IMG/VR virus record: IMGVR_UViG_3300022719_000283
Location: 188,067 to 252,066 of that record
DNA from: a virus
Lineage: Duplodnaviria > Heunggongvirae > Uroviricota > Caudoviricetes
DNA length: 64,000 bases
Reading direction: 5' to 3' (one strand)
The position numbers were made by a program, and so were the translations under genes. This document shows, one piece after another, positions 11,668 to 59,081 of the stretch. Position 1 is the stretch's first letter, and every line of letters starts with the position of its first letter. Below the pieces are notes generated by a model that was not told the origin of the DNA, searched no databases, and saw nothing but the letters and a program-made list of their open reading frames with translations.

Positions 11668-11670
11668 CTG

Positions 11671-12099: not shown

Positions 12100-12135
12100 A
12101 GAGGGGGCGCCATTGGCCGAAAACCGAAATCAGGG

Positions 12136-25280: not shown

Positions 25281-25429
25281 GATGCTGAACTCCAGTGAAC
25301 CTCTCTCAACCGCGCGGGAGAGAGGCTCGGAAAGGGTCTGGTTGTTCAGCAGCCGCGGCAGTGCGCGGACAGCTCCTTGTAACCCAAGACCCGAAGAAGT
25401 GCAAGCGGGGCTGCCGGTAAGGTGCATGC

Positions 25430-26074: not shown

Positions 26075-26658
26075 ATCCCCTTGCCGATCGAATTGTAACG
26101 ACGGTCCTCTGGCCAGAGCAGAAACTCGATGGGCACGTGATCCGTATACCAGACTCCGTTACCAGTCAGGTAAAACTTGTGCCCCTCATCGTGCATGACC
26201 TTGGCTCGGACCTTGATGATGATCGGACGACCCCGCCGCTCACCCACGCGAATGGCAGTCTCGTAGTCAGGGGATAGATGGACCGCATGACGATTCATCT
26301 TGAGTAGGCCCTCTTCTCGGATCGCAGGTACGAACCTCTCCGGAGTCCCGTGGTACAGACACTCCGGAGGCTCCCTCTCTTCGTATCCGAGGTCCACCGG
26401 AACGGAGTGTCCTTGTCGGGCGCGGATTCGTTCCCCGTCTTCGCTGAGTTCAAACCGTTTCTTGTCGTTGGTGTCGACGACTTCTTGCAGGAGCTCTCGG
26501 GTGAGTCCTCGAGCCCGTTTCTGATCGACAGAGCGCTTGAGTAGCTCATCCACATCGGCCCATCCGGCGTTGTCCAGCTCGATGCCGATTTTGCCCGGGT
26601 TGTGCCGGAGCACCAAGCTCAGGAACTTCGAATAGTTCTTCAGCTTTCGTTCTTCCAT
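26044..26658 (-). CDS. kptA: RNA 2'-phosphotransferase Tpt1/KptA
   Basis: SKFLSLVLRHNPGKIGIELDNAGWADVDEL, RFELSEDGERIRARQGHS, LYHGT and HAVHLS match the conserved Tpt1/KptA blocks. Confidence 0.85.
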   Translation of the reverse strand: MEERKLKNYSKFLSLVLRHNPGKIGIELDNAGWADVDELLKRSVDQKRARGLTRELLQEVVDTNDKKRFELSEDGERIRARQGHSVPVDLGYEEREPPECLYHGTPERFVPAIREEGLLKMNRHAVHLSPDYETAIRVGERRGRPIIIKVRAKVMHDEGHKFYLTGNGVWYTDHVPIEFLLWPEDRRYNSIGKGIYPAPDLRGS

Positions 26659-26668
26659 CGCGGCTCTC

Positions 26669-27001
26669 CTACTCTTCGGGTTCCATCGAAGACATCAACG
26701 GGTAATCGCTTCGACGCGCTAGTTCATGCACAATGGCACATTTGGTTTCGGCGATCTCGTGAGTATAGACCCCGGCCACCGACAGACCTTCTTGATGCAC
26801 TTGCATCGTGATCCGTTCCGCTTCGGTGCGCCCCTTACGGAAGACCTGCTGAACGAGCTGTACCACCCATTCGACAGGGGTGAAGTCATCGTTGTGAAGA
26901 AGGACTTTGTAGCGCCGGGGTTTTTGGAGTTCCTGCTTCTTTTTCTCGAGAAGACCCACTCCTCCCTGGCGGTTGTCTTCAGTATCATCGCGCTCAGGCA
27001 T
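26669..27001 (-). CDS. clpS: ClpS, ATP-dependent Clp protease adaptor
   Basis: YKVLLHNDDFTPVEWVVQLVQQVF...AERITMQVHQEGLSVAGVYTHEIAETK matches the ClpS core (YKV.LLNDDYTPMEFV...VH..G...CGVYT.EVAETK). Confidence 0.8.
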   Translation of the reverse strand: MPERDDTEDNRQGGVGLLEKKKQELQKPRRYKVLLHNDDFTPVEWVVQLVQQVFRKGRTEAERITMQVHQEGLSVAGVYTHEIAETKCAIVHELARRSDYPLMSSMEPEE

Positions 27002-27006
27002 CGTTC

Positions 27007-27654
27007 CTACTTTCTACGCCCCCGCTCAAAGATGCGCCAAACTTCAGTCACCTCCGGGCCAAACAGCCGGCTAGGGACCTCCTCCACAAGACGCATCTCA
27101 CGGTACTCCGGAACCTGTTGATCCTCGAGCGCGTGGAGGGTCTGCCAAGGAACAAGACCTCCCGTCTCCTCAATCGGATTCACGTTCTTGGACGACCTGT
27201 AGTAGAAGCCTGACACGAGCCCCCACCGGAGCCCGTCGATGCGACGGAAAAGCTCTTGGTAGTACTCCGTGTTCTGAGCTGCCGAGGCGGTGATCTCCGT
27301 GGAGAACAAACTGACGAAGGCCGTGATGGGCTTTCCCTCGAGCTCGGCGAGAAATGCAGGATCCCGGTAATTACCGGGACGTGGGTCTTGAGGTTCCGAA
27401 GGGTTTGAACTGGCGTTCTCATCGAACCCGACGTAACTCTCCCAAATTCCGTGTTGCCGGAACTCCTGCGATCGTCCACAACCCAGATCAACAACCCGGG
27501 GGACGCCGGCCACCATGGTGAAAAAGCGCAAGGCTCGGTCATGAGCCCGCCGCACCCCAGTTTCTGCCAAGTAGCTATCGTACTGCTCGTAAAAATCGTG
27601 GTCGTATCCCATCGAATCCTCTACATAGTACGAGGTCTCGATAGAATCAGTCAT
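27007..27654 (-). CDS. Putative SAM-dependent methyltransferase-like protein
   Basis: VVDLGCGRS resembles SAM-binding motif I (D/E-x-G-x-G). This is weak evidence. Confidence 0.35.
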   Translation of the reverse strand: MTDSIETSYYVEDSMGYDHDFYEQYDSYLAETGVRRAHDRALRFFTMVAGVPRVVDLGCGRSQEFRQHGIWESYVGFDENASSNPSEPQDPRPGNYRDPAFLAELEGKPITAFVSLFSTEITASAAQNTEYYQELFRRIDGLRWGLVSGFYYRSSKNVNPIEETGGLVPWQTLHALEDQQVPEYREMRLVEEVPSRLFGPEVTEVWRIFERGRRK

Positions 27655-27666
27655 GTGACAGATGCG

Positions 27667-27888
27667 TTAAGGGGTCAAACGGCGAGCAATCCCAGCATTT
27701 GCCCACATGCGCACTTCTTCCAGATGGGTCATGGCCAGGGACTGCTCACGAGAATCGGGGCAAAGCGCCACAATCAGGTCTGCCAGCTCGCGGACCTTGT
27801 CCCCGATTTTCGTGTATCGCTCGGGCTGGTCTCCGTGAGGAGGGTGGTAGGTGAACCGGGTATCGAGCTCTTCTTGGGTGAGAGGCAT
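27667..27888 (-). CDS. Small conserved phage-type protein (73 aa, RFTYHPP motif)
   Basis: MPLTQEELDTRFTYHPPHGDQPERY...ALCPDSREQSLAMTHLEEVRMWANAGIARR. The author recalls seeing this as a hypothetical in actinobacterial phages; function unknown. Confidence 0.45.
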   Translation of the reverse strand: MPLTQEELDTRFTYHPPHGDQPERYTKIGDKVRELADLIVALCPDSREQSLAMTHLEEVRMWANAGIARRLTP

Positions 27889-27910
27889 CCTCTACCATAC
27901 CCGATCAAGC

Positions 27911-28096
27911 TCAATCGGGTTTTCCATGACTCTCGAGAGTCACGTTACCGTGCTCGTCGACAGTGGTCTTGATGCCGTACTTCCCCCGAATGCCTCCTTT
28001 GCCGCATCCAGGATTCGGGCAAAAGTAGTTGCCAGTCTCGAGATCCCGCTCGAACTCGGCCCCGCACTCACGACAGCTCATCTTGATGCTTCCCAC
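27911..28096 (-). CDS. Small zinc-ribbon protein (61 aa)
   Basis: CRECG...CPNPGCGKGG is a four-Cys ribbon. Confidence 0.4.
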   Translation of the reverse strand: MGSIKMSCRECGAEFERDLETGNYFCPNPGCGKGGIRGKYGIKTTVDEHGNVTLESHGKPD

Positions 28097-28116
28097 GGTG
28101 CGACTCTACCGGTGCC

Positions 28117-28434
28117 TCACTCTTTGAGGCGCCATTCGTATATCGGTACTTGCCGCACATTTCCGCCCAGAGGACGAACGTTGTTGGCTGTACGCCAACG
28201 GCAAAAATGCTTGCCCTCCCCACCCCCCTTCACAAAACACCACGGGCACCGGGGCCGGGCGTCCACCACACTAGGATGGTGCCCGCGCCCTTCCGCTTGG
28301 GCGATCTCATCAACCTGGCTAGCCTGCATGGCTACCAGGCGGTACCCCACAACCACTCGCTCGTAGCGAGGGTCGTGCTCCTTACTGGGGTTGGGGTTGT
28401 TGTTCTGGCTCTTGTTGGAGTTGGACGTGTTCAT
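28117..28434 (-). CDS. Hypothetical protein (105 aa)
   Basis: ORF only; a plus-strand alternative overlaps it. Confidence 0.25.
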   Translation of the reverse strand: MNTSNSNKSQNNNPNPSKEHDPRYERVVVGYRLVAMQASQVDEIAQAEGRGHHPSVVDARPRCPWCFVKGGGEGKHFCRWRTANNVRPLGGNVRQVPIYEWRLKE

Positions 28435-28539
28435 GACGAGTTGCGAAGTGCAACTACGTCATGGCGGCTGTCTCCAAGGGAGCTTCAGTTGTGGTGCAGT
28501 GCGCACGAGTCCTCAAGATAGAGGGAGCTCGGATCGGAG

Positions 28540-29061
28540 TCAAGTCGAAAAAAGATCAAGAGCCGAAGGCTGATTCTCCCCCAGCCTCTCTCGGATTTCG
28601 TGCTCCGTCGCAAGCTCCCCGTCCTTCAGGATGTGAAGGAGCTCGATGCCTTGCTCGACCAGATCAGCCCCCACCAAGCGCCGCCGATGGCATCCAGAAG
28701 GGTCAGCTTCGCTACACATAAGCGTCACTTCACCGAGCTCCTTGTTCATCTCAAAGCCACGAAGGAGCTCCTGAAGGCCATCCTGGTACTTCTGCGAGGC
28801 CCGGATCTTGTCGTAGTCGGGAGCCCCCATTGTGAAAAGGTTAGGGTCGTCCGGAAGACCCCCCAGAGAGTGCCCCATCCAAACGTACGGAACCCCGGCC
28901 CTCCGCAAGTCCTCTGCAATCACGTACCGGTTGTACTGAGGGTTGTGGCGGCTAAAAGGCTTGCTCCGGATGTCGACGACCACGGCGATATTGCAGCCGC
29001 GCAGACGCCTGATGAGCTCCTCAGTGGACAGGTTGCTGTGGCCGATCGTGTAGCTCTTCAT
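28540..29061 (-). CDS. DUF488-family protein
   Basis: MKSYTIGHSNLSTEELIRRLRGCNIAVVVDIRSKPFSRHNPQY matches the DUF488 N-terminal consensus TIGHS....EF..LL....I..VVDVR..P.SR..P.F. Confidence 0.6.
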   Translation of the reverse strand: MKSYTIGHSNLSTEELIRRLRGCNIAVVVDIRSKPFSRHNPQYNRYVIAEDLRRAGVPYVWMGHSLGGLPDDPNLFTMGAPDYDKIRASQKYQDGLQELLRGFEMNKELGEVTLMCSEADPSGCHRRRLVGADLVEQGIELLHILKDGELATEHEIRERLGENQPSALDLFST

Positions 29062-29245
29062 CGAGCTCCCTGTCCAGGGCCTGGCACTGTTCCGGCGTCA
29101 ATTCGAACACGGAGGTATCGTCGTCGGGCAGGATGCACTTCGCCGCCGCCTCGGCTTCTTGGCGCGTCTTGTAAGGCCCGACACATCCTTCGTCGGGATA
29201 CTCTGTGATGTAGAAGGCGTAGCCGCCTTCGGACCAGTTGTTCAT
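29021..29245 (-). CDS. Small hypothetical protein (74 aa)
   Basis: ORF overlapping its neighbours by a few nt on both sides, as in an operon. Confidence 0.3.
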   Translation of the reverse strand: MNNWSEGGYAFYITEYPDEGCVGPYKTRQEAEAAAKCILPDDDTSVFELTPEQCQALDRELDEELHDRPQQPVH

Positions 29246-29919
29246 GTTTCACTTCCGTTGAGTAGGTCCATGATGTTGGGACCTTCGATGACTTCGGGTT
29301 TCTTCCGCCACGTCCACGACTTGCGTGCTTCGAAGGGGAGTCGCCCATGTTTGGCCTCGAAAGCTTCAAGGAATTGGCGAGTCCCTTTGTTGACATACCC
29401 CCCACCAGTAATCTTGCCATACTCGGGCTCATATCGGGCCAGAATGCGGTCCATCTCTTCGTCCCGAGTAGTCTTAGCAACGATCGACGCCGCCGAAACG
29501 GACACGTGTTTTGTGTCGGCTTTGTTCTCCGCGATGAGGTTAGGCCATTCTGAAGAAAGGCAACCGAAGATAGGAGCTCCGTCACACACGATATGGTCTT
29601 CAGAAGTGGCCTCAAGCATCTTGAGGAGCTCAAGAGCTCCTCGCCTTTCAAGATCATCCAAGGCACCCCGCTCCACGTAGGTGTCAATCTCGGCAGGCTC
29701 GAAGATAAGGACCGCACAGTGACATCGCTGGTAAATCCAGGGGCGAGCCTTAAGCCGTGCCGTTTTGGCTTTCCCTCCACTACCGTATTTCTTGCTGTCT
29801 TGGATGCCCAACCCTCGGAGCTCGGTCTCATGCTCTGGAGTCAAGGCGACAGCCGCCATCACCAGTGGCCCCAATACAGGTCCGCGTCCAGCTTCATCGA
29901 TCCCGATCAAGCGCACCAC
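29242..29919 (-). CDS. rnhB: Ribonuclease HII
   Basis: LIGIDEAGRGPVLGPLVMAAV, DSKK and SAASIVAK are RNase HII catalytic and substrate-binding motifs. Confidence 0.85.
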   Translation of the reverse strand: MVRLIGIDEAGRGPVLGPLVMAAVALTPEHETELRGLGIQDSKKYGSGGKAKTARLKARPWIYQRCHCAVLIFEPAEIDTYVERGALDDLERRGALELLKMLEATSEDHIVCDGAPIFGCLSSEWPNLIAENKADTKHVSVSAASIVAKTTRDEEMDRILARYEPEYGKITGGGYVNKGTRQFLEAFEAKHGRLPFEARKSWTWRKKPEVIEGPNIMDLLNGSET

Positions 29920-30296
29920 GATCTCTTCCCTACCTCCACATCACCGAAAAACCGTTTACACGACCAGTCATACATCCCGTGACTAGCGTCGTAGTTATAC
30001 TGCTTCACGAGGTACTGGAGACGTAACCCGATAGAGACCGGGTCGGGGCGGTTCGTTTTGGGGCCTGGGGTTTTGACCGTGATGAGTTGGTAGCCGCGAC
30101 CTCCACGCGAAATCCTAACGGAATACTTAGCATTCGGGAGGATACCCGCACGAACATCGTCTTTGATGTCCCGCCGAATCCTTTTAGCAACTTCAGTCAG
30201 ATCAATATTCCGCGTTTCCCAGTACTTCGCCCCGATGTGGGGTGCGGCTTCGTAGGCAGCAATCTCCTTGATGAACTTCTCGAGCGTATCAGCCAC
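29907..30296 (-). CDS. Hypothetical protein (129 aa)
   Basis: ORF overlapping the rnhB start by 13 nt; no motif. Confidence 0.4.
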   Translation of the reverse strand: MADTLEKFIKEIAAYEAAPHIGAKYWETRNIDLTEVAKRIRRDIKDDVRAGILPNAKYSVRISRGGRGYQLITVKTPGPKTNRPDPVSIGLRLQYLVKQYNYDASHGMYDWSCKRFFGDVEVGKRSWCA

Positions 30297-30828
30297 CCCA
30301 GTTGATCCTTTTGTAGACTCCTTCTTTCTCTCCCCAGTCGAGCCACCGTTCGATCAGGACAGGCAGGCGTCCGGCCTCTTCCTGGCTGTGAACCGTCTCC
30401 CCCGTGATGTCGTGCAACGCAGCCAGAGGCTCCCAGATCGCAAGATCATCCCATGGCTCTTCGAAACAATCGAGCCGACGTAGGAGGGCTGGAACAGCCT
30501 CTTCGCCTAAATCAACGAGCTCTTTGTAGAGCGGATCATCAGTCACGATTCGGGACAGAAACTTGTGCTTCTTGTAGAGCTCTCGACAGAGTTCCTTGAC
30601 CTGATCCATGTGTGGGTAGTCTCCGAGTTGGTAAGTTCCGCTCTCGAGAGCTTTCACGGCTGCTTCCACACAGTCCGGGCAAGCTAAAAGCCGTCCTTCA
30701 TCCAAGGCATTAGCACTGGCGTGATCGAGCCCGGTGAACGCGAACTCACGATACCATGGCGTGTTACACCAGAAAACCTTCTTCTCTTTCGGGTGCTGAA
30801 TGTGCTTTACGTAACTCGGGAGTTTCAC
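30289..30828 (-). CDS. Hypothetical protein (179 aa)
   Basis: ORF in the operon-like run; no motif. Confidence 0.4.
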   Translation of the reverse strand: MKLPSYVKHIQHPKEKKVFWCNTPWYREFAFTGLDHASANALDEGRLLACPDCVEAAVKALESGTYQLGDYPHMDQVKELCRELYKKHKFLSRIVTDDPLYKELVDLGEEAVPALLRRLDCFEEPWDDLAIWEPLAALHDITGETVHSQEEAGRLPVLIERWLDWGEKEGVYKRINWGG

Positions 30829-31121
30829 CCCACCTCCACCAACTTTTCACGAAAGGTCTTGCGGGTGATCGCGTTGTAATCCCGCCGTGTGCGCGTCATC
30901 GGCTCCAGAAGTTTAGCCGACAGCTTGCGGCGTCCCTCCGGTGTACGGAAGTACTCCGACATCAGCTTTTGATTTCGCTCTCTTTGAGTGAGCATCTTTC
31001 CGGAGCCTTTGCATAAGTCGCAAGGGCGCCGGGTGACCAGCAGTACGATCTCGCCTTGGCCCAGACAGTCAGGACATTCGGCCATGCCCTGACTATACCG
31101 GCCAATCAATACGGATGTCAC
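30825..31121 (-). CDS. DnaJ-type CxxCxGxG zinc-finger protein whose C-terminal 40 aa mimic the capsid-protein N-terminus
   Basis: CPDCLGQGEI...CDLCKGSGK is the DnaJ-type finger. KLMSEYFRTPEGRRKLSAKLLEPMTRTRRDYNAITRKTF has 22 of 38 residues identical to KLISEYIKTPTGRAKLAASLTQPLRTRRDYTSVGRKTF at the N-terminus of 60096-60974. Confidence 0.6.
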   Translation of the reverse strand: MTSVLIGRYSQGMAECPDCLGQGEIVLLVTRRPCDLCKGSGKMLTQRERNQKLMSEYFRTPEGRRKLSAKLLEPMTRTRRDYNAITRKTFREKLVEVG

Positions 31122-31133
31122 TGGGCTTCCTCA

Positions 31134-31496
31134 TCAAGGAGCTACCTTCTTCTCGAACTCATCGAGAGCCTTCTCGTGCTCCTCTTGAGCCTCCTTCATC
31201 GGATCCGGTTTCGACGCTGGCTTGATCTCCACCTTCTGGGCAGGAGGGGTCGGTTCCGGCTTTTCAGGGAGCTCGATCCCTTCGGGCTCGAGAGGGTTCG
31301 GCAGTTTGTAGATGTAGCTGTCGACGATGCCAATGACGCCCAGGAGAGCCATGAGGGCAGCTCCAGCGGCTGCCCATCGTAGACCCCAAGCCAGGTGTTC
31401 GTCCTTCTCTTCGTCAGCAACCTCATGGAGCTTGCGGCGAAGAGCAAAGAGAAAGCCGATGCCGGCGGCAACGGCGATGATACTGACGATGCCCAT
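31134..31496 (-). CDS. Small membrane protein with two predicted TM helices
   Basis: Hydrophobic stretches IVSIIAVAAGIGFLFAL and WAAAGAALMALLGVIGIV, followed by a Pro/Glu/Lys-rich tail. Confidence 0.45.
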   Translation of the reverse strand: MGIVSIIAVAAGIGFLFALRRKLHEVADEEKDEHLAWGLRWAAAGAALMALLGVIGIVDSYIYKLPNPLEPEGIELPEKPEPTPPAQKVEIKPASKPDPMKEAQEEHEKALDEFEKKVAP

Positions 31497-31498
31497 GG

Positions 31499-32479
31499 TT
31501 ACTTGGCTTGCTCTTTCTCGGACTTCGGAGCCTCGGGTGCGGGGGTTTGCACGATCACATCGTGGTTGCCTTCGGCTACCGCCTCCGCCATCGCATCAGC
31601 GGAATCAGCGAACCGCTCCTGGTTCTTGAGCTCGACGTAGGTAGCGTAATCCACTCCGGCGATCTGGGCGTTGACCACGTCATTCTCCGCGCGTACTTTC
31701 TGAACGATCTGCCTCTGCTGTTCGACCTCGAGTTCGGCCTTGAGCGCACGGACGGTCCGGGCCTTCTCCTCATCGACCGCGTAGAGACGACGCTTGGCCT
31801 GAATCACCTCTCGAGGCACCTCACCAATCCCGTTCGGAAATCCGAGTTCGGTCACCACGATGGGGGCATCTCCGAGCATCTCGCTGATCGCCTGCTTGGT
31901 GGAATCCGCGATCTCAGGGACGTTTGTCAGGACCTCTTCGACAGTATGCTTGCGCAGCTCGGTCACGATGGCATCAGGAGCCTTGCGGGCCAGGTACTTC
32001 TCGTAGACTTGGTCTGCGGAGATCAGCATCGTGAAAGGGGCATCGCCTTCCGCGGACACCTTGGCGAAGATCTCATCTTGGCTCTCCTGGTCTGGCTTGA
32101 CTTCGAAAACCAGACCCACCTGCACGTTCTTGATGTCCACGTTGGAGTCGGGGAGGTACAGCGTATCGATCGTCATGTCTTTGGTGCTCTTGCTGACCTG
32201 AAGACGGACAAGCTTTTCGCACGCCTCGAGAGGCCCGCACCAATCCAGAAGGTACGCTCCCGGACCAACCGTTTTCTCTTCCAAACCATGTTTGCCGAGG
32301 ACGCGACCGACTTCGCCCGTTTCGACGGTCACACGCTCACCGACGCATGCGCCCAAGAAAAGGGCGGAGAACAGAACGGGAATGAAACGTTTCACAGGAC
32401 TTTTACCCTTCGCACGAAAGACCTTACCAGGTACCGAGTCTCGGTATTCCCAGGGCCTCCACAGCAGGGTTTTCGTCAA
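31499..32479 (-). CDS. SPFH (band-7/stomatin/HflK-like) domain lipoprotein
   Basis: Lipobox LFLGAC. VTVETGEVGRVLGKHG...TVGPGAYLL...TKDMTIDTLYLPDSNVDIKNVQV follows the SPFH pattern. Confidence 0.6.
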   Translation of the reverse strand: MTKTLLWRPWEYRDSVPGKVFRAKGKSPVKRFIPVLFSALFLGACVGERVTVETGEVGRVLGKHGLEEKTVGPGAYLLDWCGPLEACEKLVRLQVSKSTKDMTIDTLYLPDSNVDIKNVQVGLVFEVKPDQESQDEIFAKVSAEGDAPFTMLISADQVYEKYLARKAPDAIVTELRKHTVEEVLTNVPEIADSTKQAISEMLGDAPIVVTELGFPNGIGEVPREVIQAKRRLYAVDEEKARTVRALKAELEVEQQRQIVQKVRAENDVVNAQIAGVDYATYVELKNQERFADSADAMAEAVAEGNHDVIVQTPAPEAPKSEKEQAK

Positions 32480-32500
32480 TCCACGCCTTGATCCCCAAGA

Positions 32501-32794
32501 TCAGGGCTTGGCCATGAGCTCTTGGAAAGATCCCCCAGGAGGAGGCGTGACCACCTGCGTGGGATCTTTGGCCCCCTCGGGGAGCCGAATCCAGACCGTC
32601 TCGTAGACGAAGGCGACGAACTTTTTTAGATCGGTCTTCTTCTTGAGATCCTCGTAGCCTGTGGCTTGATCCACCAAGACTGCCATGGGTGTTCGCGGTT
32701 CTCCTCCGATGTGGGTACCGGCAACCCGGTCAAACTCCCGCACGAACCCCTCGTTCTCCAAACACTCCTGGACGCACTCTTCAAATTTCAGCAT
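32501..32794 (-). CDS. Hypothetical protein
   Basis: ORF; start placed at the internal MLKFEEC to avoid overlap with the next gene. Confidence 0.3.
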   Translation of the reverse strand: MLKFEECVQECLENEGFVREFDRVAGTHIGGEPRTPMAVLVDQATGYEDLKKKTDLKKFVAFVYETVWIRLPEGAKDPTQVVTPPPGGSFQELMAKP

Positions 32795-32804
32795 GTCGAG
32801 GATT

Positions 32805-33242
32805 CTACCCCATCCTGCTGAAAACCCAGGCATCCGAGGTAGGAACAAGGCGCCATTCCCCCCAGTGGCTACGCCCATCTTTGCCTGGACGCCATCTGAC
32901 CAGGTAGCTCCCGTCTTGATCCTTCTTCACGATGTGCCACTGATGCTGGCAGATCGCAATGGTGTCCTCCATCACCCCTCCGTAAACGAGGTCCTTCTCA
33001 ACGACCGCCTCTCCGTCCTCGATGAGCGAGTACCACGGACGTGAAAACGCGAGAGGAGGTGTATGCTCGAGAGGCTCTTTCTCCTCGATGAGAAGCCGGT
33101 ACAAGAGACCGCCCCGAAGAGAGTGCTCGGCCTCGATCAGGAACCGTTTTCTATCGATGACGGGGGAGTATCCTCCTTGCTCGCGGAGCTCCATCCAACG
33201 AGCAATCGCCTCCAAAGTTTTCTGAGCTTCCTGGTGATCCAT
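32805..33242 (-). CDS. Hypothetical protein (145 aa)
   Basis: ORF; no motif. Confidence 0.4.
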   Translation of the reverse strand: MDHQEAQKTLEAIARWMELREQGGYSPVIDRKRFLIEAEHSLRGGLLYRLLIEEKEPLEHTPPLAFSRPWYSLIEDGEAVVEKDLVYGGVMEDTIAICQHQWHIVKKDQDGSYLVRWRPGKDGRSHWGEWRLVPTSDAWVFSRMG

Positions 33243-33250
33243 GGTGGTTC

Positions 33251-33586
33251 CTAGTCAGGTTCGTTGCGAAGCCACTCCGCAAACGCTGCAAAATCCAAAT
33301 TCAAGAAAGCCCTACAGTAAGGCATCTTGTGCGTGATCACGTCTCGGTTATCTCTCACTCCCAACACGAGAGGCTGCCCGCATCGACACAAGGTCTCTTC
33401 TTCCTCTTCTTCGATGTTAGATCGAGAGAGCTCAAAGACCTTCTCGGCTACCTGACGGTACGGGTAGTGAGGAGGGCCTTCCTTGCCGCATGCACATGTG
33501 GCCGGTTCCGGGTCAGCATCAGGAGCCTCCTCCGGGACGCCGTAAACCCGAGCAGCTCCGCAAAAAGGACACGGCTCGTGGGACAC
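33251..33586 (-). CDS. Cys-rich hypothetical protein
   Basis: CPFCG...CACG...CRCG...YC suggests metal-binding. The start is uncertain; the N-terminus of the ORF as listed overlaps the upstream gene. Confidence 0.3.
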   Translation of the reverse strand: MSHEPCPFCGAARVYGVPEEAPDADPEPATCACGKEGPPHYPYRQVAEKVFELSRSNIEEEEEETLCRCGQPLVLGVRDNRDVITHKMPYCRAFLNLDFAAFAEWLRNEPD

Positions 33587-33623
33587 CTCCCATGTTACCC
33601 GCCCAGACCCATGTTCGAAACGC

Positions 33624-34274
33624 TTACCACCGCCCCATGACCTCTCGGTAGTCGTACTTGGATCCCAATGCTTCTTGAATTGTGATCTGGTCCGTGGAGT
33701 AGCCCAGACACTGACCGTTGTAGCCCCAAGCGGTCTTGGCAATCCGGACCTCGCCGCGTACAAACCGGATCCCCTTTTCCGTGGGACGCCAAAAACCCGA
33801 GCTCCGTTTGGAGGGGTCCGTCTCATTGGGCTTCTCTTCAGCTAGCCCGAAGAACTTGAGCTTGTCCTTGTCTCCGCCCCCACGTCGCCCTTGAAGCAAA
33901 GGCGCATCTTGAAGAGAGGCCCACGCACCATCTTTGCACGTGCGAACGAGCCAGATGAGGAAAACTGCAACTGCTCCGTAGACCTTACGTGGGTAAAGCT
34001 GGACGCGCTGATTACAGCAAGGGCAGTAGGTGCCTGCGTAGAAACTGGCGTCAAAGAGAGGCCACGCTTGCGCCATCGTCATGTCTTCGCGCGTCGAAGG
34101 GCGTGGAAAAAAGATGCCCGGATCTGCTTTCGACTTCGTAGACTTGGGTGGTGTTCGTATCTCCTGTTGTCGACGAGCCACCTCTGACAAGAGGTCCGCT
34201 GTCGACGCAGCACTCAGGTCCAGTTTGTACTCCTGAACGGAATCCTCAAACCCAAAATCGTCCCACTCTGCCAT
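33624..34274 (-). CDS. Hypothetical protein (216 aa)
   Basis: ORF; contains CPCCN and one hydrophobic helix. Confidence 0.4.
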   Translation of the reverse strand: MAEWDDFGFEDSVQEYKLDLSAASTADLLSEVARRQQEIRTPPKSTKSKADPGIFFPRPSTREDMTMAQAWPLFDASFYAGTYCPCCNQRVQLYPRKVYGAVAVFLIWLVRTCKDGAWASLQDAPLLQGRRGGGDKDKLKFFGLAEEKPNETDPSKRSSGFWRPTEKGIRFVRGEVRIAKTAWGYNGQCLGYSTDQITIQEALGSKYDYREVMGRW

Positions 34275-34291
34275 GGTCTGCCCCTACCCCC

Positions 34292-34849
34292 CTACCCCGT
34301 ACTCCGAATCCGTTGCCGGGCCTCCATGATGGCGAACCCGAGCAGATTCTGTCCCCGCCACTTGTGAGGGTTATGGGCGGCCTTATCTTCGCGCCGAAGA
34401 CCGATGCCCCAAATGCAGTCGTGTGGGCTGGCCTCGACGAGCACCATGTCCTTAGTGCCCAGCAGGTACTTTCGAAGCTCGGTATCCTGGCTGAACTTGG
34501 CAACATTGCCTTTGACCACAGCCTCGAACTTGTGAGCGTCCCACTTGGCCTGATCCCAGTTACGAACCTGACGACCCAGCTCCTTCGCTTCGTCGGGGCC
34601 ACCACAGGCGAGGATCTGCTGGAGTGTGTCCTCGTCACCCATGACCCGAGCCTTTTCGGCCATCATCCCATGCTCGGCCGTAGGGTACTCGATACCGTCA
34701 ATCTCGAAGTCCGAAAAGTGCCACTGACTGAAGACATAGGGCCCGATGGTGCTGACATCGTGTCCCTTGCGGCCCCAAAACATCAGGAACTCGGGACGGT
34801 GCCCTTCGTCCCAAGCTTTGGTGAGAGTTTCTCGATCTCGAAATTCCAT
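34292..34849 (-). CDS. NADAR (YbiA-like) domain protein
   Basis: FWG...FSQWH..DFEIDGIEYPTAEHGMMAEKA...AKELGRQV..WDQAKWD...NVAKFSQDTELRKYLLGT...LVEASPHDCIWGIGL matches the NADAR/DUF1768 blocks. The start is set at the internal MEFRD. Confidence 0.65.
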   Translation of the reverse strand: MEFRDRETLTKAWDEGHRPEFLMFWGRKGHDVSTIGPYVFSQWHFSDFEIDGIEYPTAEHGMMAEKARVMGDEDTLQQILACGGPDEAKELGRQVRNWDQAKWDAHKFEAVVKGNVAKFSQDTELRKYLLGTKDMVLVEASPHDCIWGIGLRREDKAAHNPHKWRGQNLLGFAIMEARQRIRSTG

Positions 34850-34904
34850 ACGCCCCTTATACCCGATGCGGATCTCGCGATCCTGGATTTTCACGGAAAG
34901 CGCG

Positions 34905-35426
34905 CTACGGCTTCCGAGAAGCCCACCGCTTGATCGCGCGACGATCCTTCCCCGTCGCTCGGTCGCTGAGCAGGGTACCTTCCAGGTGGTCGTATTCGTG
35001 TTGGAGGGCCACCGAAAACAGGTGGTTGTGGGTCGCATCTAGCGTGAACTGTTCACCCTGGCGATTAAAAGCCGTTACCTTCACCCACTCCTGGCGCTCT
35101 ACCTCGGCAAGTAGACCAGGAAAACTGAGGCAGCCTTCGGGACGCACAACCTGATTGTCATTAGTAGGTTCGAGTTCAGGATTGATGAAGACCCAAGGCT
35201 CCACCAGGCGGTTGCCGTTAATGGGTCGCTGGTCGATGATGAACAGCCGCAAGTTGCGTCCCACTTGTGGCGCCGCAAGCCCAACTCCCTCCTGGTAGAA
35301 CATGGTGTAGATCATGTTCTCGATGAACTCCTGGAGACCCTCGAGCTCGTCGAGATCTACCGGAACGCTTGGCGCCTCAAGACTCGGTGCCGGGTATTCG
35401 AGGACCGTGAGAAGCTTCGAAGGCAT
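34905..35426 (-). CDS. def: Peptide deformylase
   Basis: GLAAPQVG, EGCLSFPG and HEYDHLEG are the three canonical PDF motifs. Confidence 0.85.
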   Translation of the reverse strand: MPSKLLTVLEYPAPSLEAPSVPVDLDELEGLQEFIENMIYTMFYQEGVGLAAPQVGRNLRLFIIDQRPINGNRLVEPWVFINPELEPTNDNQVVRPEGCLSFPGLLAEVERQEWVKVTAFNRQGEQFTLDATHNHLFSVALQHEYDHLEGTLLSDRATGKDRRAIKRWASRKP

Positions 35427-35504
35427 GGGACACCTTACCAGAGCGCGATCTTGGCGTCCTCACCAACGCGCCCCTAACGAGCCTATGCGTCACCCTTAGC
35501 GAAG

Positions 35505-36272
35505 ATGGTCGACTCCGAAAAGCTCCGCGTTCTCATCGCTGAGGACAACCCAGGGGATGTTGCAATCTTAGAGCATATTCTGGCGGGGTTGAATACAGAA
35601 TTGCGGCATACGAGATCGCTCAAGCAGCTCCGTGAAGACGGCCACATTTGGGACCCAGACGTGGTCCTGCTCGACCTTCATCTTGAGGACAGCCAGGACT
35701 TCATGGTGACGGCACGGACCGTAGTCAGTCTCTTCCCTACCATTCCCGTCATCGCCGTAACCGGGCTAGATGAAAAAGAGTTCGCCCTCCGAGCGCTTCA
35801 AGCAGGCATCTCCGCGTACCTGATCAAAGGCACGTTGTCAGGGTCTGATCTGATGAAACACATCCACGAGGCCATCGCGCGCAAGAAAGCTCAGTACCGA
35901 TCTCTTACCACAGCCGTCTCACAGGATGAACTACGCGCCATGGTCAAGGAGGCGGTGGAAGAAGCTCTGACCGATGAGCCTGAGCCCCCGACCTCAATGC
36001 GCACCGTGATCCTCGCCGTCTTGGCAATCCTTCTGTTGCTAGGGGGCACCGGTGCATGGGCCTATTTCCAGCTCGCCAAAATCGAAAAGCAACGCAAAGA
36101 GATCCATCGCAAGAGCTCCGAAGATCTTCGGGCCGAGAAGTTCCAAGAGTTCCAAGAGCTCCGTCAGGAGCATATGGACAACCGAAGGCAGTGGGAAACC
36201 GGTGGGGAAGTCGGTCCCAAGCCCAAGAAGCCACCTCGTCTTCTTCAACTCGAACAAGAACTTGCCCAGTAG
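35505..36272 (+). CDS. Response-regulator receiver-domain protein with C-terminal TM helix and coiled-coil
   Basis: RVLIAEDNPGDV...VVLLDLHL...YLIKG gives the receiver-domain Asp and Lys positions. ILAVLAILLLLGG is a TM segment, followed by a charged helical tail. Confidence 0.65.
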   Translation: MVDSEKLRVLIAEDNPGDVAILEHILAGLNTELRHTRSLKQLREDGHIWDPDVVLLDLHLEDSQDFMVTARTVVSLFPTIPVIAVTGLDEKEFALRALQAGISAYLIKGTLSGSDLMKHIHEAIARKKAQYRSLTTAVSQDELRAMVKEAVEEALTDEPEPPTSMRTVILAVLAILLLLGGTGAWAYFQLAKIEKQRKEIHRKSSEDLRAEKFQEFQELRQEHMDNRRQWETGGEVGPKPKKPPRLLQLEQELAQ

Positions 36273-36274
36273 CC

Positions 36275-37444
36275 ATGTCCGACCATTACCTCAAAGCTGA
36301 GCTCTATGATCGACTTAGCTCCGACCCCACCCTCTTCGAATGGCTTGAGGCCGGGAGCTTAGACGGTGTCTGGTTTCTCAACGTCGAAAACTTCATCGAC
36401 CAATGGTATTCGCCACGGTTCAAGAGACTTTTCGGCTACGAAGATCACGAGATCCCCAACACATTCCAGTGGTGGCAAGAAAACATCTTCCCCGAAGACA
36501 AACAACTTGCTCTGGACAGCTACTACAAACACCTCGAGAACCCCGAAAAGTTCCCCTACGACCAAATCGTCCGATACCGACACAAGAACGGCTCCACTGT
36601 CTGGGTTCGTTGTCGTGGGCTTGTTTTGAAGGAGAAAGGCAAGCCTGTGCGTATGCTAGGAGCCCACACCGACATCACTCCCATCAAGAAGGCTGAAATC
36701 GAAGCAGGCCAGCGAATTGAGGAACTTGAGACCCTGTCCGCTGCTCTTCAACGTTCCAACTACGAACTCGAGCAGTTCGCCTACCTAGCAAGCCACGATC
36801 TACAAGAACCACTGCGCATGGTGGCATCCTTCGCCAAGATGATCGACGACACGTATGGCGAAACGGGAGCCCCTCTTGATGAGCGTGGGCGCCAATGGCT
36901 CGGGTACCTGGTCGAAGGGGCAAGTCGGATGCAGATACTCATCAACAGCTTGCTCTCCTTGAGTCGGATCAAGGAACAGGTAGAGGAGATGGCATCCATC
37001 GACATGGAACAGATCATGGAAGAGATTGTCACCGATCTCGGTATCCGTATCATCGAGAAGAACGCCAAGATCCTCACCGGAGACCTACCGTCTTTTATGG
37101 GGGTACGCAGCCAAGTACGACAGGTGTTTCAAAACCTCATCTCTAATACACTTAAGTTCCATGGCGACAAGCCACCAGTGGTTCGCATCCGTGGGGACGA
37201 ACTCGATGATGGGATGGTGCGCTACACGGTTCATGATGAAGGCATCGGGATCCTCCCTTATGACGCGGGCAAGATCTTCGAGGCGTTCTATCGAGGGAAA
37301 GAAACGCAAGACATTTCGGGAAGTGGTATCGGGCTTTCCATTTGCAAAAAGATCGTCACATTACACGGCGGCACTATCCGATGCGAATCGGAACTCGGCG
37401 TGGGAACGACTTTCATCGTTACGTTCAAGGGAACAGGAAAATGA
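36275..37444 (+). CDS. Sensor histidine kinase (PAS - HisKA - HATPase_c)
   Basis: H-box LASHDLQEPLR. G-boxes HDEGIGI and GSGIGLSICKKIV. An N-terminal PAS-like segment. The start is set at the ATG just after the stop of the response-regulator gene, not at 36056 inside that gene. Confidence 0.8.
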   Translation: MSDHYLKAELYDRLSSDPTLFEWLEAGSLDGVWFLNVENFIDQWYSPRFKRLFGYEDHEIPNTFQWWQENIFPEDKQLALDSYYKHLENPEKFPYDQIVRYRHKNGSTVWVRCRGLVLKEKGKPVRMLGAHTDITPIKKAEIEAGQRIEELETLSAALQRSNYELEQFAYLASHDLQEPLRMVASFAKMIDDTYGETGAPLDERGRQWLGYLVEGASRMQILINSLLSLSRIKEQVEEMASIDMEQIMEEIVTDLGIRIIEKNAKILTGDLPSFMGVRSQVRQVFQNLISNTLKFHGDKPPVVRIRGDELDDGMVRYTVHDEGIGILPYDAGKIFEAFYRGKETQDISGSGIGLSICKKIVTLHGGTIRCESELGVGTTFIVTFKGTGK

Positions 37445-37860
37445 GACCACTGGAAATCTTACTCATCGAAGACAACGACGCCGACGTAGAGATCCTCCGC
37501 CACACCCTCGAACAGGAGAATGTGGTGCTGACGTTGTCTCGTGCCCGTGACGGGGATGAGGCGATAAGGTACCTGCGGAACAGTAACAACCCACGGCCCG
37601 ACCTCATTTTCTTGGACCTCAACATGCCGCACATGGACGGTCGTGAGGTACTAGGGGAGCTACGCGTAGATCCGAAGCTCGACCCTATCCCCGTGGTTGT
37701 CATGACCTCGAGCGAGGAAGAGAAAGACATCGTGCGCAGCTACAACCTCGGGGCCGCCGCCTACGTGGTCAAACCGCTCAAGCTCCAGGACATCGAAGAA
37801 GTCGTTCGCTCGATCAGCAAGTTCTGGCTGAGAGTCGTTCGATACCCCAACCGTAAGTGA
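37441..37860 (+). CDS. Single-domain (CheY-like) response regulator
   Basis: LLIEDNDADVEILR...LIFLDLNMP...PVVVMTSS...AYVVKP is a receiver domain. Its start shares ATGA with the kinase stop. Confidence 0.75.
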   Translation: MRPLEILLIEDNDADVEILRHTLEQENVVLTLSRARDGDEAIRYLRNSNNPRPDLIFLDLNMPHMDGREVLGELRVDPKLDPIPVVVMTSSEEEKDIVRSYNLGAAAYVVKPLKLQDIEEVVRSISKFWLRVVRYPNRK

Positions 37861-39224: not shown

Positions 39225-40667
39225 CTAGGTAATCCTAGGTGACTCGGATTCGAGGCTGTGCCGACCTCTCCTCGGGGGAGATGCTCCGGTAGTAAGCCTC
39301 CGGCCTGACGGTTCAGGCGCGGGGGGTGCCTTTCGGCAGAGTCCCGCGGGACTGGTCCTCGATCCCCTTCGGAGATCTCGGAATCGCGCTCGCAGCAACT
39401 CCCTCACGTCTCGATGGTGATCTCCAAGACCAACCTGTTCATCCTCGGAACGTCCGAGCAGATTGATCCCTCCCACCACATCAGCGTGAGACCGCCTGCC
39501 GCATGAGCGACAGACGAAATTAACTCCTGATCGGTTCCGTCGTGAGACGTAACCACAGGAAGGACAAGTCTGGGACGTGTACGCCGGATTCGCCTTGATG
39601 GTCGGCGCCTTCGTCTCCAAACTGTGGGCTAGAGCCCTGTAAGCAAATCTCTTCTGCCCTCGACAACCTCGGAGGTCGAGGTCTTCGACCACGAACACCG
39701 TGCCCTTGGGGGCATCACGAACGAGCTTGTTCGCTACCTCTCCAGTGATCGTTTTCACCATCCCCGTGAGTTTCGACTCTAAGCGGTCGAGCCTGGGGCT
39801 GTTCTCCTTCAAACCCTGTCGTTGGCGGTTGGCCCGGAGACTCCTGACGCGCTCGTAGAGCCGGTCGAACTTGGGCTTGAGTTCGGCACCAAAGGTTCGG
39901 CCGTCCGACGTGGCAGCCACCACGTTCAGGCCAACATCAACACCGATTCTGGGAGCGTCAGGTTGGGGTTCGGGGACAACCCATTCCTTCTTCTCGACCG
40001 TCTCAAACCTCCAACGTCCCCTCTTGTCCTTGCGAGCGTGAATCCCTTTCGACACGTCGGATGCGGACTTGACGTAGGGGTTCCCACACAACGGGAGCCA
40101 GATGACTTTCCTGGAGACCAAGGTGGAGATCTTGATCCACATGGGCGCCACCACGGCTTCGTCGGCGTCGGTCAACGTGCAGGTGTTCTCCGACAACCGC
40201 ATCGGGATGCGTTCGGACACCTTTGGTGGATTGCCGGAGATCTCGGTATCGAGGAGGATCGCCCAATAGGCGTTGATGGCCTCCTGAGTGACGTGTTTCC
40301 AGGGCTCTGATATCAGGTGCTTGCCGACCGTGCAGAGGGCGTATCGTTCCTCTTGGGAGATTCCCCCGAACCTGTGGAGACGAGTGATGTACTTCTTGAG
40401 GGCGCGCTCGTAGGTAGCCTTGGCCCATGTGGAGACGATTTGGATGGCGTGGTCGCGTGCGTTCTTTTGAATCTGGGAAGTGAGCCCCTCGGCTTTCGGG
40501 AAGAACGCCTGTTTCTCCGACCGCTTAAGGTTCAGGCGGTGGTTGTCGAGCATGTGCTGCACGCAGATGCGGACGTAGGACACGTACTCGACGTGTAACG
40601 CCTCCAAGGCGGCGACCTTGCCCGGATTGGTCTCCGAGTGGAGGTAGAGGTGTCGTGACTTCTTCAT
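39225..40667 (-). CDS. tnpB: TnpB (OMEGA / RuvC-like RNA-guided nuclease), IS605/IS607 OrfB family
   Basis: RuvC-I IGVDVGLN, RuvC-II VFVVEDL, zinc finger CPSCG...CRSCG, RuvC-III HADVVGGINLL. The C-terminal tail probably reads through the omega-RNA region. Confidence 0.8.
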   Translation of the reverse strand: MKKSRHLYLHSETNPGKVAALEALHVEYVSYVRICVQHMLDNHRLNLKRSEKQAFFPKAEGLTSQIQKNARDHAIQIVSTWAKATYERALKKYITRLHRFGGISQEERYALCTVGKHLISEPWKHVTQEAINAYWAILLDTEISGNPPKVSERIPMRLSENTCTLTDADEAVVAPMWIKISTLVSRKVIWLPLCGNPYVKSASDVSKGIHARKDKRGRWRFETVEKKEWVVPEPQPDAPRIGVDVGLNVVAATSDGRTFGAELKPKFDRLYERVRSLRANRQRQGLKENSPRLDRLESKLTGMVKTITGEVANKLVRDAPKGTVFVVEDLDLRGCRGQKRFAYRALAHSLETKAPTIKANPAYTSQTCPSCGYVSRRNRSGVNFVCRSCGRRSHADVVGGINLLGRSEDEQVGLGDHHRDVRELLRARFRDLRRGSRTSPAGLCRKAPPAPEPSGRRLTTGASPPRRGRHSLESESPRIT

Positions 40668-40915
40668 TCGTCTTTCGGGTCAAGTGCAGGACCATCCGGC
40701 TCAGCCATAGGCTCCCCAGGATCAAGGCTATCGTCTAATGCGTTCGCAAGGTGATCGCGTGCGCGTGTAACAAAGCCCGGCGGCTTATCCATACCATTCA
40801 ACCACTGTTGAAGTTCCGCCCAAGCCTGCACGACGTTTTGAAACTGCCGACGTGCCAGGTGATTGTCGGGCAGTTGCCGCAGATATTCTTTCATTGACAT
40901 TTCCCTATCAGCCAT
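40664..40915 (-). CDS. 83-aa ORF between tnpA and tnpB
   Basis: Its start is 22 nt after the tnpA stop and its stop overlaps the tnpB start by 4 nt (ATGA). Helical-looking composition. Confidence 0.4.
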   Translation of the reverse strand: MADREMSMKEYLRQLPDNHLARRQFQNVVQAWAELQQWLNGMDKPPGFVTRARDHLANALDDSLDPGEPMAEPDGPALDPKDE

Positions 40916-40936
40916 CGATGCCTCCTTGAATTCCGG

Positions 40937-41683
40937 TCATGCTGCTTTCTCCTTCCGTTTCTTCTTGCGGCGGTTCTCCGCGCTTCGTTTGCCGTAGATG
41001 CGGGCCGAGAAGCTCGACATCAGCGACAGCATGTCCTCCACCAACTCTTCCTCGTAACTCTTGCCCAACACGTCTTCTACCCACTCCACCTCGACACCGT
41101 GGCTCTGGAAATACGCCTGCAAGAACCCGAAGTTGAACCGGCACAGACGGTCCTTGTGCTCGACCACGACAACATCGACCTCGTGGGCGTCCACCAGCTT
41201 GAACAGCCGGTGGAGTTTTGGCCTCGTGTCCGACATGCCCGAACCTATTTCTTCAAATGCGCCAACGAGTTTGTATCCTTGACGGGCGACATGGGCGACG
41301 ACGCGATCCGACTGGCGTTCGAGATCACCCTTCTGTTTCTGGTCGTGACTGCTGACCCGGCAATAGGCAACCGCCCGAATCTCCTGGTTTTCACGCTCGG
41401 GGGATTCTCGACCCTGGAACTTCTCGACGTCGGAGAGCCGGTACTTCCGCCACCCTCCGGGCGTCCTGACGGCTTTCAAGGTGCCGTCAGCGTCCCAACG
41501 GCGGAGGGTACTGATGTGGACGCCGAGAAGCTCAGCGGTCTTTCCTGGACCCAGGAGCCTGTCCTGGGAGGAGTCCTTGGGTTTTGAAGATTTCCCGCCA
41601 CTGGTCGTGGATCGCCTGGAACTCCTTGACGGACGGGATTTTGCCGTCTTGGAAGGGGATCGGGTGCGGGAAGACTTTGCCAT
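40937..41683 (-). CDS. tnpA: IS607-family TnpA serine recombinase with N-terminal MerR-like HTH
   Basis: TAELLGVHISTLRRWDADGTL is a MerR-type HTH. AVAYCRVSSHDQK is the serine-recombinase catalytic motif, followed by a resolvase-like core. Confidence 0.8.
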   Translation of the reverse strand: MAKSSRTRSPSKTAKSRPSRSSRRSTTSGGKSSKPKDSSQDRLLGPGKTAELLGVHISTLRRWDADGTLKAVRTPGGWRKYRLSDVEKFQGRESPERENQEIRAVAYCRVSSHDQKQKGDLERQSDRVVAHVARQGYKLVGAFEEIGSGMSDTRPKLHRLFKLVDAHEVDVVVVEHKDRLCRFNFGFLQAYFQSHGVEVEWVEDVLGKSYEEELVEDMLSLMSSFSARIYGKRSAENRRKKKRKEKAA

Positions 41684-58054: not shown

Positions 58055-58096
58055 ACCCTATCTGAAAACATACGCAAACAGTCGGGTAGTTTCTTC

Positions 58097-59068: not shown

Positions 59069-59081
59069 CGAAAAACGCTCC

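Follow-up and report, generated by a model that had tools for sequence, protein, structure and literature searches.

A membrane-anchored receiver, histidine kinase and response regulator cassette in a huge tailed phage: a candidate phage-owned two-component pathway

Phages are usually viewed as reading host physiology through host regulators, or through small peptide and quorum signals. Three plus-strand genes at 35505-37860 of a 64,000-nucleotide stretch of viral DNA (positions 188,067 to 252,066 of IMG/VR record IMGVR_UViG_3300022719_000283, Caudoviricetes; the whole stretch is called the window below) raise the question of whether a phage can also carry a sensing pathway of its own. On the strand opposite to the surrounding genes they encode, in order, a receiver protein (gene 1), a histidine kinase (gene 2) and a stand-alone regulator (gene 3). 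Our reading, to which we give a probability of about 0.65, is that they form one huge-phage operon encoding a working, phage-owned two-component pathway; since the phage has a kinase operon of its own with a likely phage-specific receiver target, the virus itself probably reads the condition of the infected cell, beyond relying on host sensors.

Domain architecture and gene arrangement

The original prediction, made from the letters alone, had described a receiver-domain protein with a transmembrane segment and a tail, a PAS-HisKA-HATPase kinase and a stand-alone CheY-like regulator, the last two joined by an ATGA overlap and neither regulator having a DNA-binding output domain. This description held throughout: the three genes lie opposite to their minus-strand neighbours, Pfam searches returned Response_reg for both regulators, all three domains for the kinase and no DNA-binding output, and the overlap of the gene 3 ATG with the gene 2 TGA was read directly at 37441-37444.

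We characterized gene 1 by profile search and structure prediction. It matched Response_reg over residues 9-119 (E = 1.1e-11; 45.3 bits, cut-off 30.2), with an intact catalytic set of E13, D14, D57, T86 and K108. The receiver (residues 7-135) is followed by a helix (140-155), an acidic linker, a single strong hydrophobic segment (168-188, nucleotides 36006-36068; Kyte-Doolittle 19-residue mean 2.35) and a conserved, charged tail of 67 residues (189-255; 15 K/R, 13 D/E) that ends ...GPKPKKPPRLLQLEQELAQ. The AlphaFold2 model (mean predicted local distance difference test score, pLDDT, of 79) has predicted helices at 165-200, 205-232 and 244-254, and its receiver domain is modelled with the canonical (beta-alpha)5 receiver fold, matching the KdpE receiver in Foldseek at a target-normalised TM-score of 0.87 (root-mean-square deviation 2.0).

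A search of 5.8 billion proteins gave 12 clusters with full-length similarity to gene 1 (37-100% identity), beyond which matches dropped sharply to generic receivers (E ~1e-7), and this family was seen only on syntenic phage-like contigs. Besides the receiver catalytic set, the family conserves an unusual motif, DFMVTAR, which is invariant and comes after the acceptor Asp. Also conserved are a hydrophobic segment that is rich in Gly and has W/Y next after it and, in the tail, FQEFQxLR and GPKPKKPxRLLQLEQELAQ. When 1.84 billion representative proteins were searched with a profile of the membrane and tail part, nothing but family members matched, and receiver domains were the sole matches in the fold search. 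In architecture, gene 1 can be likened to MetOD3 of methanogens (PMC5847659), where a receiver is likewise fused to a rare, narrowly distributed membrane-anchored output; MetOD3 genes are, however, archaeal and chromosomal, and a sequence relationship is not expected.

Gene 2 matched PAS_3 (residues 30-135, E = 9.9e-22), HisKA/DHp (165-234, E = 1.3e-09, above cut-off) and HATPase_c (277-385, E = 1.8e-25). Its H-box, HDLQEPL, contains the phospho-acceptor His174, and the N (NLISNTLKF, 287), G1 (DEGIGI, 321), F (FEAFY, 335) and G2 (GSGIGL, 349) boxes are in place; no hydrophobic segment was found in it. These motifs are those of a soluble HisKA-type sensor kinase, predicted to be active. Pfam matches to its sensory part were only PAS_3/PAS_9, with no GAF or PHY match, and the PAS domain had no LOV or haem signature that could be asserted. 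The nearest solved kinase cores are 8f71 and the bacteriophytochrome kinase modules 8sgk and 8avv, and the nearest bacterial homologues share 45-48% identity.

Gene 3 consists of Response_reg with no other domain (E = 2.3e-24, 86 bits) and has the stretches EDN..., LIFLDLNMP, VVVMTSS and AYVVKP of the catalytic set. Its best PDB matches were 5te9, RcpA (1k68, E = 3.7e-30), Rcp1 (1i3c, E = 1.4e-28) and RcpB (1k66, E = 3.8e-27). Genes 2 and 3 resemble the Cph1-Rcp1 and bacteriophytochrome-RcpA pairs in the kinase core (H-box ...SHDLQEPLR), in the small regulator placed right after the kinase and in having no DNA-binding output. The sensors differ, the phytochromes having PAS_2-GAF-PHY and gene 2 a single PAS_3, so that nothing indicates light sensing by gene 2; the cassette also differs from these pairs in being phage-encoded and in having an extra, membrane-anchored receiver gene before the kinase. 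A bacterial counterpart (P0005 at locus L006, from metagenome-assembled genome GCA_028279245.1) is alike in domain order, length and kinase-regulator overlap, with 48% identity in the kinase and 46% in the regulator. Unlike the cassette, it is set among KaiB, KaiC and phytochrome genes, and the 284-amino-acid receiver protein beside it, encoded on the opposite strand, is divergent and lacks a transmembrane segment.

The gene 1 stop codon (TAG, 36270-36272) is followed 2 nucleotides later by the gene 2 ATG at 36275. The longest listed open reading frame (ORF) for the kinase, 36056-37444, opens upstream within gene 1; comparison of the orthologues, which all share the same start, places the true start of gene 2 at ATG 36275 instead of the upstream in-frame ATG. 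In the divergent intergenic region before gene 1, a CGATCTT(G/C)GC motif and a block just before the start codon could be aligned across relatives whose gene 1 is about 55% identical (the window compared with contigs L005, L009, L012, L015, L023, L024 and L025). The motif had no other exact copy within the window and is therefore not a general phage promoter motif; we infer a promoter and translation-start role for this region. The gene 1 start codon of one clade, which has no adjacent kinase (see below), aligns with a short dead-end ATG 21 nucleotides upstream of the window's start codon. A PADLOC scan of the three genes gave no meaningful defence-system match.

Inheritance of the cassette, kinase loss and receiver decay

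The window is phage DNA. The original prediction had placed the cassette in a phage-like minus-strand region and had named an ordinary bacterial chromosome as the finding that would speak against it; the window instead contains a capsid gene, homing endonucleases and ORFans, almost all genes lie on one strand with a monotonic GC skew, no tRNA or housekeeping genes were found in it, and structural-type genes continue past its end. The major head protein matched phrog_2522 (E = 4.9e-50), with 90.7% identity to that of LR745208.1 (uncultured phage, 485 kb), 49% to Tunturiibacter phage Tunturi_5 (309 kb) and 39% to Bacillus phage G (498 kb). A gene 1 relative is present on an IMG/VR viral contig, and capsid, kinase and gene 1 are recorded together on one contig of 618,736 bp. 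With a related capsid and a contig recorded at more than 200 kb, the virus classes as a probable huge (jumbo-class) tailed phage.

We then compared the cassette with its surroundings and relatives. The strand switch, the flanking genes and the IS607-type insertion sequence had been read in the original prediction as marks of a horizontally acquired cassette; the comparison pointed the other way, to a module that appears to have been inherited vertically in the phage clade, without recent capture. A deviant base composition was not seen: GC at third codon positions (GC3) and synonymous-codon usage of the three genes were within about 1 standard deviation of 47 other window genes, and the low total GC of gene 2 (z = -2.0) was the sole such deviation among the three, whose total GC was 0.52-0.57 vs 0.58. 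The three genes occur in the same order in metagenomic relatives with gene 1 identities of 85% (L005), 81% (L012-L014, L016-L018) and 56% (lineage P0128; L019 and L004). The cassette lies opposite-strand after the deformylase gene in L005 and L012-L014 (the L019 and L004 contigs end before the upstream gene), and gene 1 lies opposite-strand directly after deformylase in every relative reaching upstream, down to 51-56% identity. Pairwise ratios of nonsynonymous to synonymous substitution (dN/dS) were 0.045-0.125 for all three genes, vs 0.10 for deformylase, values that are approximate with synonymous sites near saturation; dN was similar. These results indicate that the three genes co-diverged with their neighbours under purifying selection.

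The supposed island markers fared no better. Rather than flanking an island, deformylase and NADAR are members of a long conserved accessory block, part of a syntenic stretch of about 20 kb across relatives (Tpt1, ClpS, an Acb2/Tad1-like protein, DUF488 and RNase HII ... NADAR, deformylase), in which the order NADAR, deformylase, gene 1 is kept in every relative extending that far. The IS607-type element lies 1.4 kb downstream of gene 3, with four small ORFs between, and L012-L014 hold the cassette without TnpA or TnpB. The cassette as IS607 cargo (TnpB/TnpA, 39225-41683) was accordingly rejected.

Gene 1 is not always followed by a kinase. A kinase directly follows it in the window clade, in P0128 (56%), in P0126 (58%) and in the outgroup P0132 (37%), a short contig whose downstream kinase is a different PAS-HisKA. 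In P0126 (L024), one in-frame TAG (2233-2235) splits a PAS ORF of a different PAS type from the kinase DHp region, and the contig ends inside the kinase core; the TAG may mark a true split or a pseudogene, or it may stem from a sequencing error or be read through. No kinase was found within about 10 kb on each side of gene 1 in P0129, P0130/L023 or P0131/L015/L020, where minus-strand genes (tRNA_bind, VWA) immediately follow gene 1. In a neighbour-joining tree rooted on P0132, these kinase-less lineages formed one clan with 100% bootstrap, nested (99%) with P0126, which is followed by a kinase core, and with P0127; one loss of the adjacent kinase and regulator would explain this most simply.

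Within this clan the receiver has decayed: D57N was observed in P0130 and L023, D14N in P0129 and D14S in P0131/L015/L020. Catalytic-residue loss was confined to the kinase-less clan, in which the rest of the protein, including DFMVTAR, the hydrophobic segment and the tail, is conserved. From the residue state, a kinase was forecast beforehand to be present in P0126 and absent in P0129; absence in P0129 was confirmed within reach, and in P0126 a kinase core begins downstream after the PAS ORF, with the TAG between them, and is cut off by the contig end. Loss of the acceptor or Mg-site residues only where the adjacent kinase is missing suggests that the phage kinase has gene 1 as a physiological acceptor, judging from gene order and a few non-independent lineages, and gene 1 of the kinase-less subclade would be a phosphorylation-independent pseudo-receiver with a retained function.

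The gene 1 homologue P0131 (L008, 10001-10747) has a frameshifted and truncated tail, and the near-identical L015 and L020 keep ...RLEQLEQELSK; either an assembly error or tail decay in one population would explain it. A 219-kb kinase-bearing viral contig from the same sample was judged unlikely to be the same genome as L008: the high Lys, Asn and Ile content of its receiver proteins suggests a lower-GC phage.

We searched for the kinase more widely. Scanning 185,579 species-representative genomes with exact kinase peptide patterns gave only two unrelated matches (25-26%), so that no host or prophage copy was identified. An IMG/VR scan with the single kinase protein returned nothing; an alignment-based scan did find relatives, on 13 viral contigs (core identity 33-41%), 9 of which are 186-527 kb long. 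An RcpA/Rcp1-like regulator lies within about 4 kb in 13/13 and is directly adjacent in 10, and most carry a second receiver gene. The 402-kb contig IMGVR_UViG_3300027985_000918 (L034/L046) encodes a receiver (REC)-membrane protein of 256 amino acids, a PAS_4-HisKA-HATPase kinase of 387 and a regulator of 153.

The second REC-membrane family comprises 34 clusters on contigs of up to 530 kb, none with a bacterial name. The order REC-membrane, PAS kinase, regulator was found on 6/6 distinct IMG/VR contigs (GC 0.45-0.62, up to 436 kb), and the catalytic residues D14, D60, T88 and K110 are invariant. Comparison of the two families by hhalign (probability 98.7%, E = 3e-16, 147 columns) covered the receiver, the post-receiver helix and a motif YL(I/E)KGT(L/F)S. 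The second family thus resembles the cassette in gene order, in protein sizes (256/387/153 vs 255/389/139 amino acids), in a single hydrophobic anchor, in a homologous receiver and following helix, and in being found only on large viral or metagenomic contigs. It differs in having a long helical linker that leads to an anchor close to the C-terminus, with only a short tail beyond, whereas in gene 1 the anchor precedes 67 conserved, charged tail residues; the two C-terminal parts could not be aligned. No conserved flanking genes were found across the second family (PspA in L034 and Band 7 in the window were checked), and a link to such membrane-stress proteins was dropped. Judged from these comparisons, the REC-membrane protein, PAS kinase and small regulator appear to be a recurrent unit on large viral contigs.

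Proposed circuit and alternative explanations

In the pathway that we propose, the soluble PAS kinase would detect a cytoplasmic cue in the infected cell and autophosphorylate at His174. The phosphoryl group would pass to gene 3, acting as a diffusible branch or a phosphate sink, and also to the gene 1 receiver, held at the membrane by its one hydrophobic segment with the receiver presumably on the cytoplasmic side, a topology favoured because the second-family anchor lies near the C-terminus. The helical and charged C-terminal part of gene 1 would be the output; phosphorylation of D57 would most likely alter its oligomeric state or partner binding and tune a membrane-associated step of infection. 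One subclade may then have dropped the adjacent kinase and regulator and retained gene 1 as a phosphorylation-independent pseudo-receiver.

Several observations weigh against this proposal. A promoter and terminator consensus scan gave nothing above shuffles and no sigma-70-like consensus. The tail profile and fold searches leave the gene 1 output unassignable by homology, and the charges beside its hydrophobic segment (N side +1/-4, C side +6/-2) agree poorly with the positive-inside rule for a cytoplasmic receiver, making the topology uncertain. A kinase elsewhere in the kinase-less genomes is compatible with the view of about 10 kb taken there, and conservation of helix alpha-1, the usual kinase-docking surface of receivers, in the kinase-less clade fits continued docking to some kinase. 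The association of kinase presence with intact residues (6 vs 3 lineages) gave an uncorrected Fisher exact p of about 0.012, calculated by hand on lineages that are few and related. Finally, the window kinase shares more identity with bacterial kinases (45-48%) than with second-family kinases (33-41%), so that descent of both families' cassettes, kinase included, from one ancestor is not established.

The original prediction had favoured signalling into host pathways or a phosphorelay decoy. Under this explanation, the phage kinase acts on host regulators and/or the phage receivers drain host kinases, with no internal circuit. It would account for the absence of a DNA-binding domain on either receiver, for a conserved alpha-1 helix in gene 1 even where no kinase is adjacent, and for the RcpA/Rcp1-type PDB matches of gene 3, a type of single-domain regulator that commonly works through protein contacts or as a sink; action of phage phoR on host PhoB has also been proposed (PMC10987575). 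A drain role, however, predicts that the Asp residues persist in kinase-less phages, and D57N and D14N/S are found there alone. The three genes also stay united in two remotely related families whose surroundings are not conserved, and the membrane and tail part, strongly conserved, would be needless for a mere sink. As an account of the whole cassette we therefore consider host interference unlikely: the idea is weakened for gene 1, where the acceptor decays in the absence of the adjacent kinase, and still stands for gene 3.

The remaining explanations would replace the phage origin or the phospho-acceptor chemistry of the cassette. Capture of the whole cassette from a host chromosome as a moron, perhaps via IS607 and without a settled phage role, would be in keeping with the opposite strand, the slightly lower GC, the element 1.4 kb away and the existence of bacterial PAS kinase and regulator pairs with the same overlap, such as L006. 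It is largely refuted, and we rate it as very improbable, since locus and strand are shared down to 51-56% gene 1 identity, dN/dS is 0.05-0.12 with dN like that of deformylase, GC3 and codon usage are those of phage genes, gene 1 has no bacterial homologue, exact peptide patterns found no close copy in the species-representative genomes, and the insertion sequence is missing from cassette-bearing relatives. An ordinary bacterial chromosome, or a host regulator beside a prophage, might be suspected from a source contig larger than most phages and from two-component genes, which are typical of bacteria; against it stand the capsid, homing endonucleases, ParB-like protein, PAPS reductase and RtcB spread over 64 kb amid ORFans, the single coding strand with steady GC skew, the relatives among IMG/VR viral contigs and a published 485-kb huge phage, and the structural genes running past the window end with no tRNA or housekeeping genes found, and we give it hardly any credence. 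We regard as equally far-fetched that gene 1 is a cRec-type enzyme acting with NADAR on cyclic phosphates or ADP-ribose derivatives and not a phospho-acceptor. Like cRec (PF20274; Iyer et al. 2021), gene 1 has a receiver fold in a huge phage near NADAR; cRec domains are tied to NADAR and Macro enzymes in jumbo phages (Iyer et al. 2021, PMC7824862), the NADAR-deformylase-gene 1 order is constant in relatives extending that far, and the RNA-repair genes RtcB and Tpt1 are in the same block. Unlike cRec, however, gene 1 scores above the Response_reg threshold, has no PF20274 (cREC_REC) match at E<=0.01 and is membrane-anchored; by its definition cRec is never accompanied by histidine kinases (PMC7824862), yet one directly follows gene 1; and the kinase-less clade loses catalytic aspartates while keeping NADAR, whose adjacency is unspecific in an entirely syntenic 20-kb block.

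A more specific form of the phage-owned pathway, which we consider speculative and on balance doubtful, makes the membrane receiver a phosphorylation-gated effector on the host envelope, within a private, conserved three-gene circuit. It could serve lysis timing, a superinfection block or membrane energetics according to a metabolic state read by the kinase. As regards a holin- or antiholin-like lysis timer, gene 1 has one hydrophobic segment and a charged tail, and no holin or lysin family was matched among its scanned neighbours or in syntenic relatives; the lysis genes of this phage were not located. If true, the envelope effector would be a virus-encoded sense-and-decide device with a REC-membrane output class unseen in cellular two-component systems, and the kinase-less clade would be its natural 'locked' version.

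Phage-borne kinases and receivers are already known. The genes phoR/phoB have been reported as auxiliary genes of soil phages (PMC10987575), our genes matched the PHROG kinase and receiver families phrog_857, phrog_10912 and phrog_731, and 120 GenBank phage records had distant kinase matches. A histidine-kinase core, distantly matched (26% identity, E = 8e-10), also lies at 37030-37839 of the 735-kb uncultured phage LR756501.1/LR756503.1, and kinases may be common in the largest phages. The cassette shares with such auxiliary genes their presence on phage genomes and their conserved catalytic motifs; those are, in contrast, single host-like genes presumed to join host regulons, and the cassette is a complete conserved three-gene module with its own receiver family that lacks a cellular counterpart. 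Such a module and REC-membrane proteins were not found described in the huge- and jumbo-phage literature searched: kinases and two-component systems are absent from the main text of Al-Shayeb et al. 2020, and a jumbo-phage survey (PMC7824862) mentions receiver domains solely as cRec. Within one clade of very large phages, a complete histidine-aspartate phosphotransfer pathway appears to have been inherited and kept under selection. Should the proposed circuit operate, huge phages would gain autonomous sensing of the infected cell and receiver domains a new membrane-tethered output class, for which the kinase-loss clade with its decayed acceptor residues offers a natural, ready-made comparison.

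Neighbouring genes and other features of the window

The coordinates of the cassette and of the other features are collected in Table 1. The stretch 23877-35426 (minus strand) is a conserved block of RNA-repair, counter-defence and host-takeover genes.

Table 1 Features of the window, with the cassette first.
Feature	Position	Strand	Details
Gene 1, membrane-anchored receiver protein	35505-36272	plus	255 amino acids, Pfam Response_reg
Gene 2, predicted soluble sensor histidine kinase	36275-37444	plus	389 amino acids, PAS_3-HisKA-HATPase_c
Gene 3, single-domain response regulator, RcpA/Rcp1 type	37441-37860	plus	139 amino acids, Response_reg alone
Divergent intergenic region, presumed promoter and translation-start region	35427-35504	plus	between peptide deformylase (minus) and gene 1 (plus)
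Peptide deformylase	34905-35426	minus	profile search
NADAR	34292-34894	minus	profile search
SPFH/Band 7	31499-32479	minus	
RNase HII	29242-29919	minus	
DUF488	28540-29061	minus	
Acb2/Tad1-hairpin protein	27667-27888	minus	
ClpS	26669-27001	minus	
Tpt1/PTS_2-RNA	26044-26658	minus	
RtcB	23877-25427	minus	
TnpB, IS607-type	39225-40667	minus	480 amino acids, Cas12f1-like_TNB and OrfB_IS605
TnpA, IS607-type	40937-41683	minus	MerR-helix-turn-helix serine recombinase
ParB-like nuclease/partition protein overlapping PAPS-reductase/DUF3440 protein	54939-56886	minus	phrog_2159, E = 1.8e-63; phrog_2302, E = 5.9e-92
Three tandem LAGLIDADG homing-endonuclease genes	56849-59963	minus	beside the capsid gene
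Capsid gene	60096-60974	minus	
Further endonucleases	1879-4308 and 15990-17354	minus	DUF7487 homing endonuclease (809 amino acids); GIY-YIG/endonuclease VII protein

Two further assemblies of this population (L001, L002) have an identical IS607-type pair, and TnpB-like matches also occur near the capsid gene of LR745208.1. A DNA similarity search of the cassette and its flanks against GenBank phages gave no match, and no gene 1, deformylase or kinase above 60% identity was found in LR745208.1.

The capsid gene is far more conserved than its surroundings. It occurs at 88-99% identity in at least 578 IMG/VR contigs, and proteins near it are just 30-57% identical to those of LR745208.1, vs 90.7% for the capsid; either very strong constraint or exchange of the capsid gene, perhaps aided by the adjacent homing endonucleases, would explain this. 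Shared capsid type was tried as a test of the kinase-bearing IMG/VR contigs and was uninformative, the capsid being too widespread. The load of selfish endonucleases around the structural genes is unusually heavy: besides those in Table 1, a 955-amino-acid protein with a Hint/LAGLIDADG intein is encoded just past the window (L044, 4688-7555).

Homologues of the window genes at 7872-13905 lie 7-13 kb from the capsid in LR745208.1 and about 46 kb from it here, so that an accessory block of about 40 kb (window ~14000-56000) lies here within a region of structural genes that is compact in LR745208.1. It holds RtcB, Tpt1, ClpS, the Acb2/Tad1-like protein, DUF488, RNase HII, Band 7, NADAR, deformylase, the two-component operon, IS607, the ParB-like protein and PAPS reductase, the last two being a recurrent phage gene pair. 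Past the window end, L044/L045 (1-2145) encode a protein of 2020 amino acids that has a Topoisom_I (type IB topoisomerase) domain; its gene precedes the capsid gene of the same phage, lying about 8 kb upstream.

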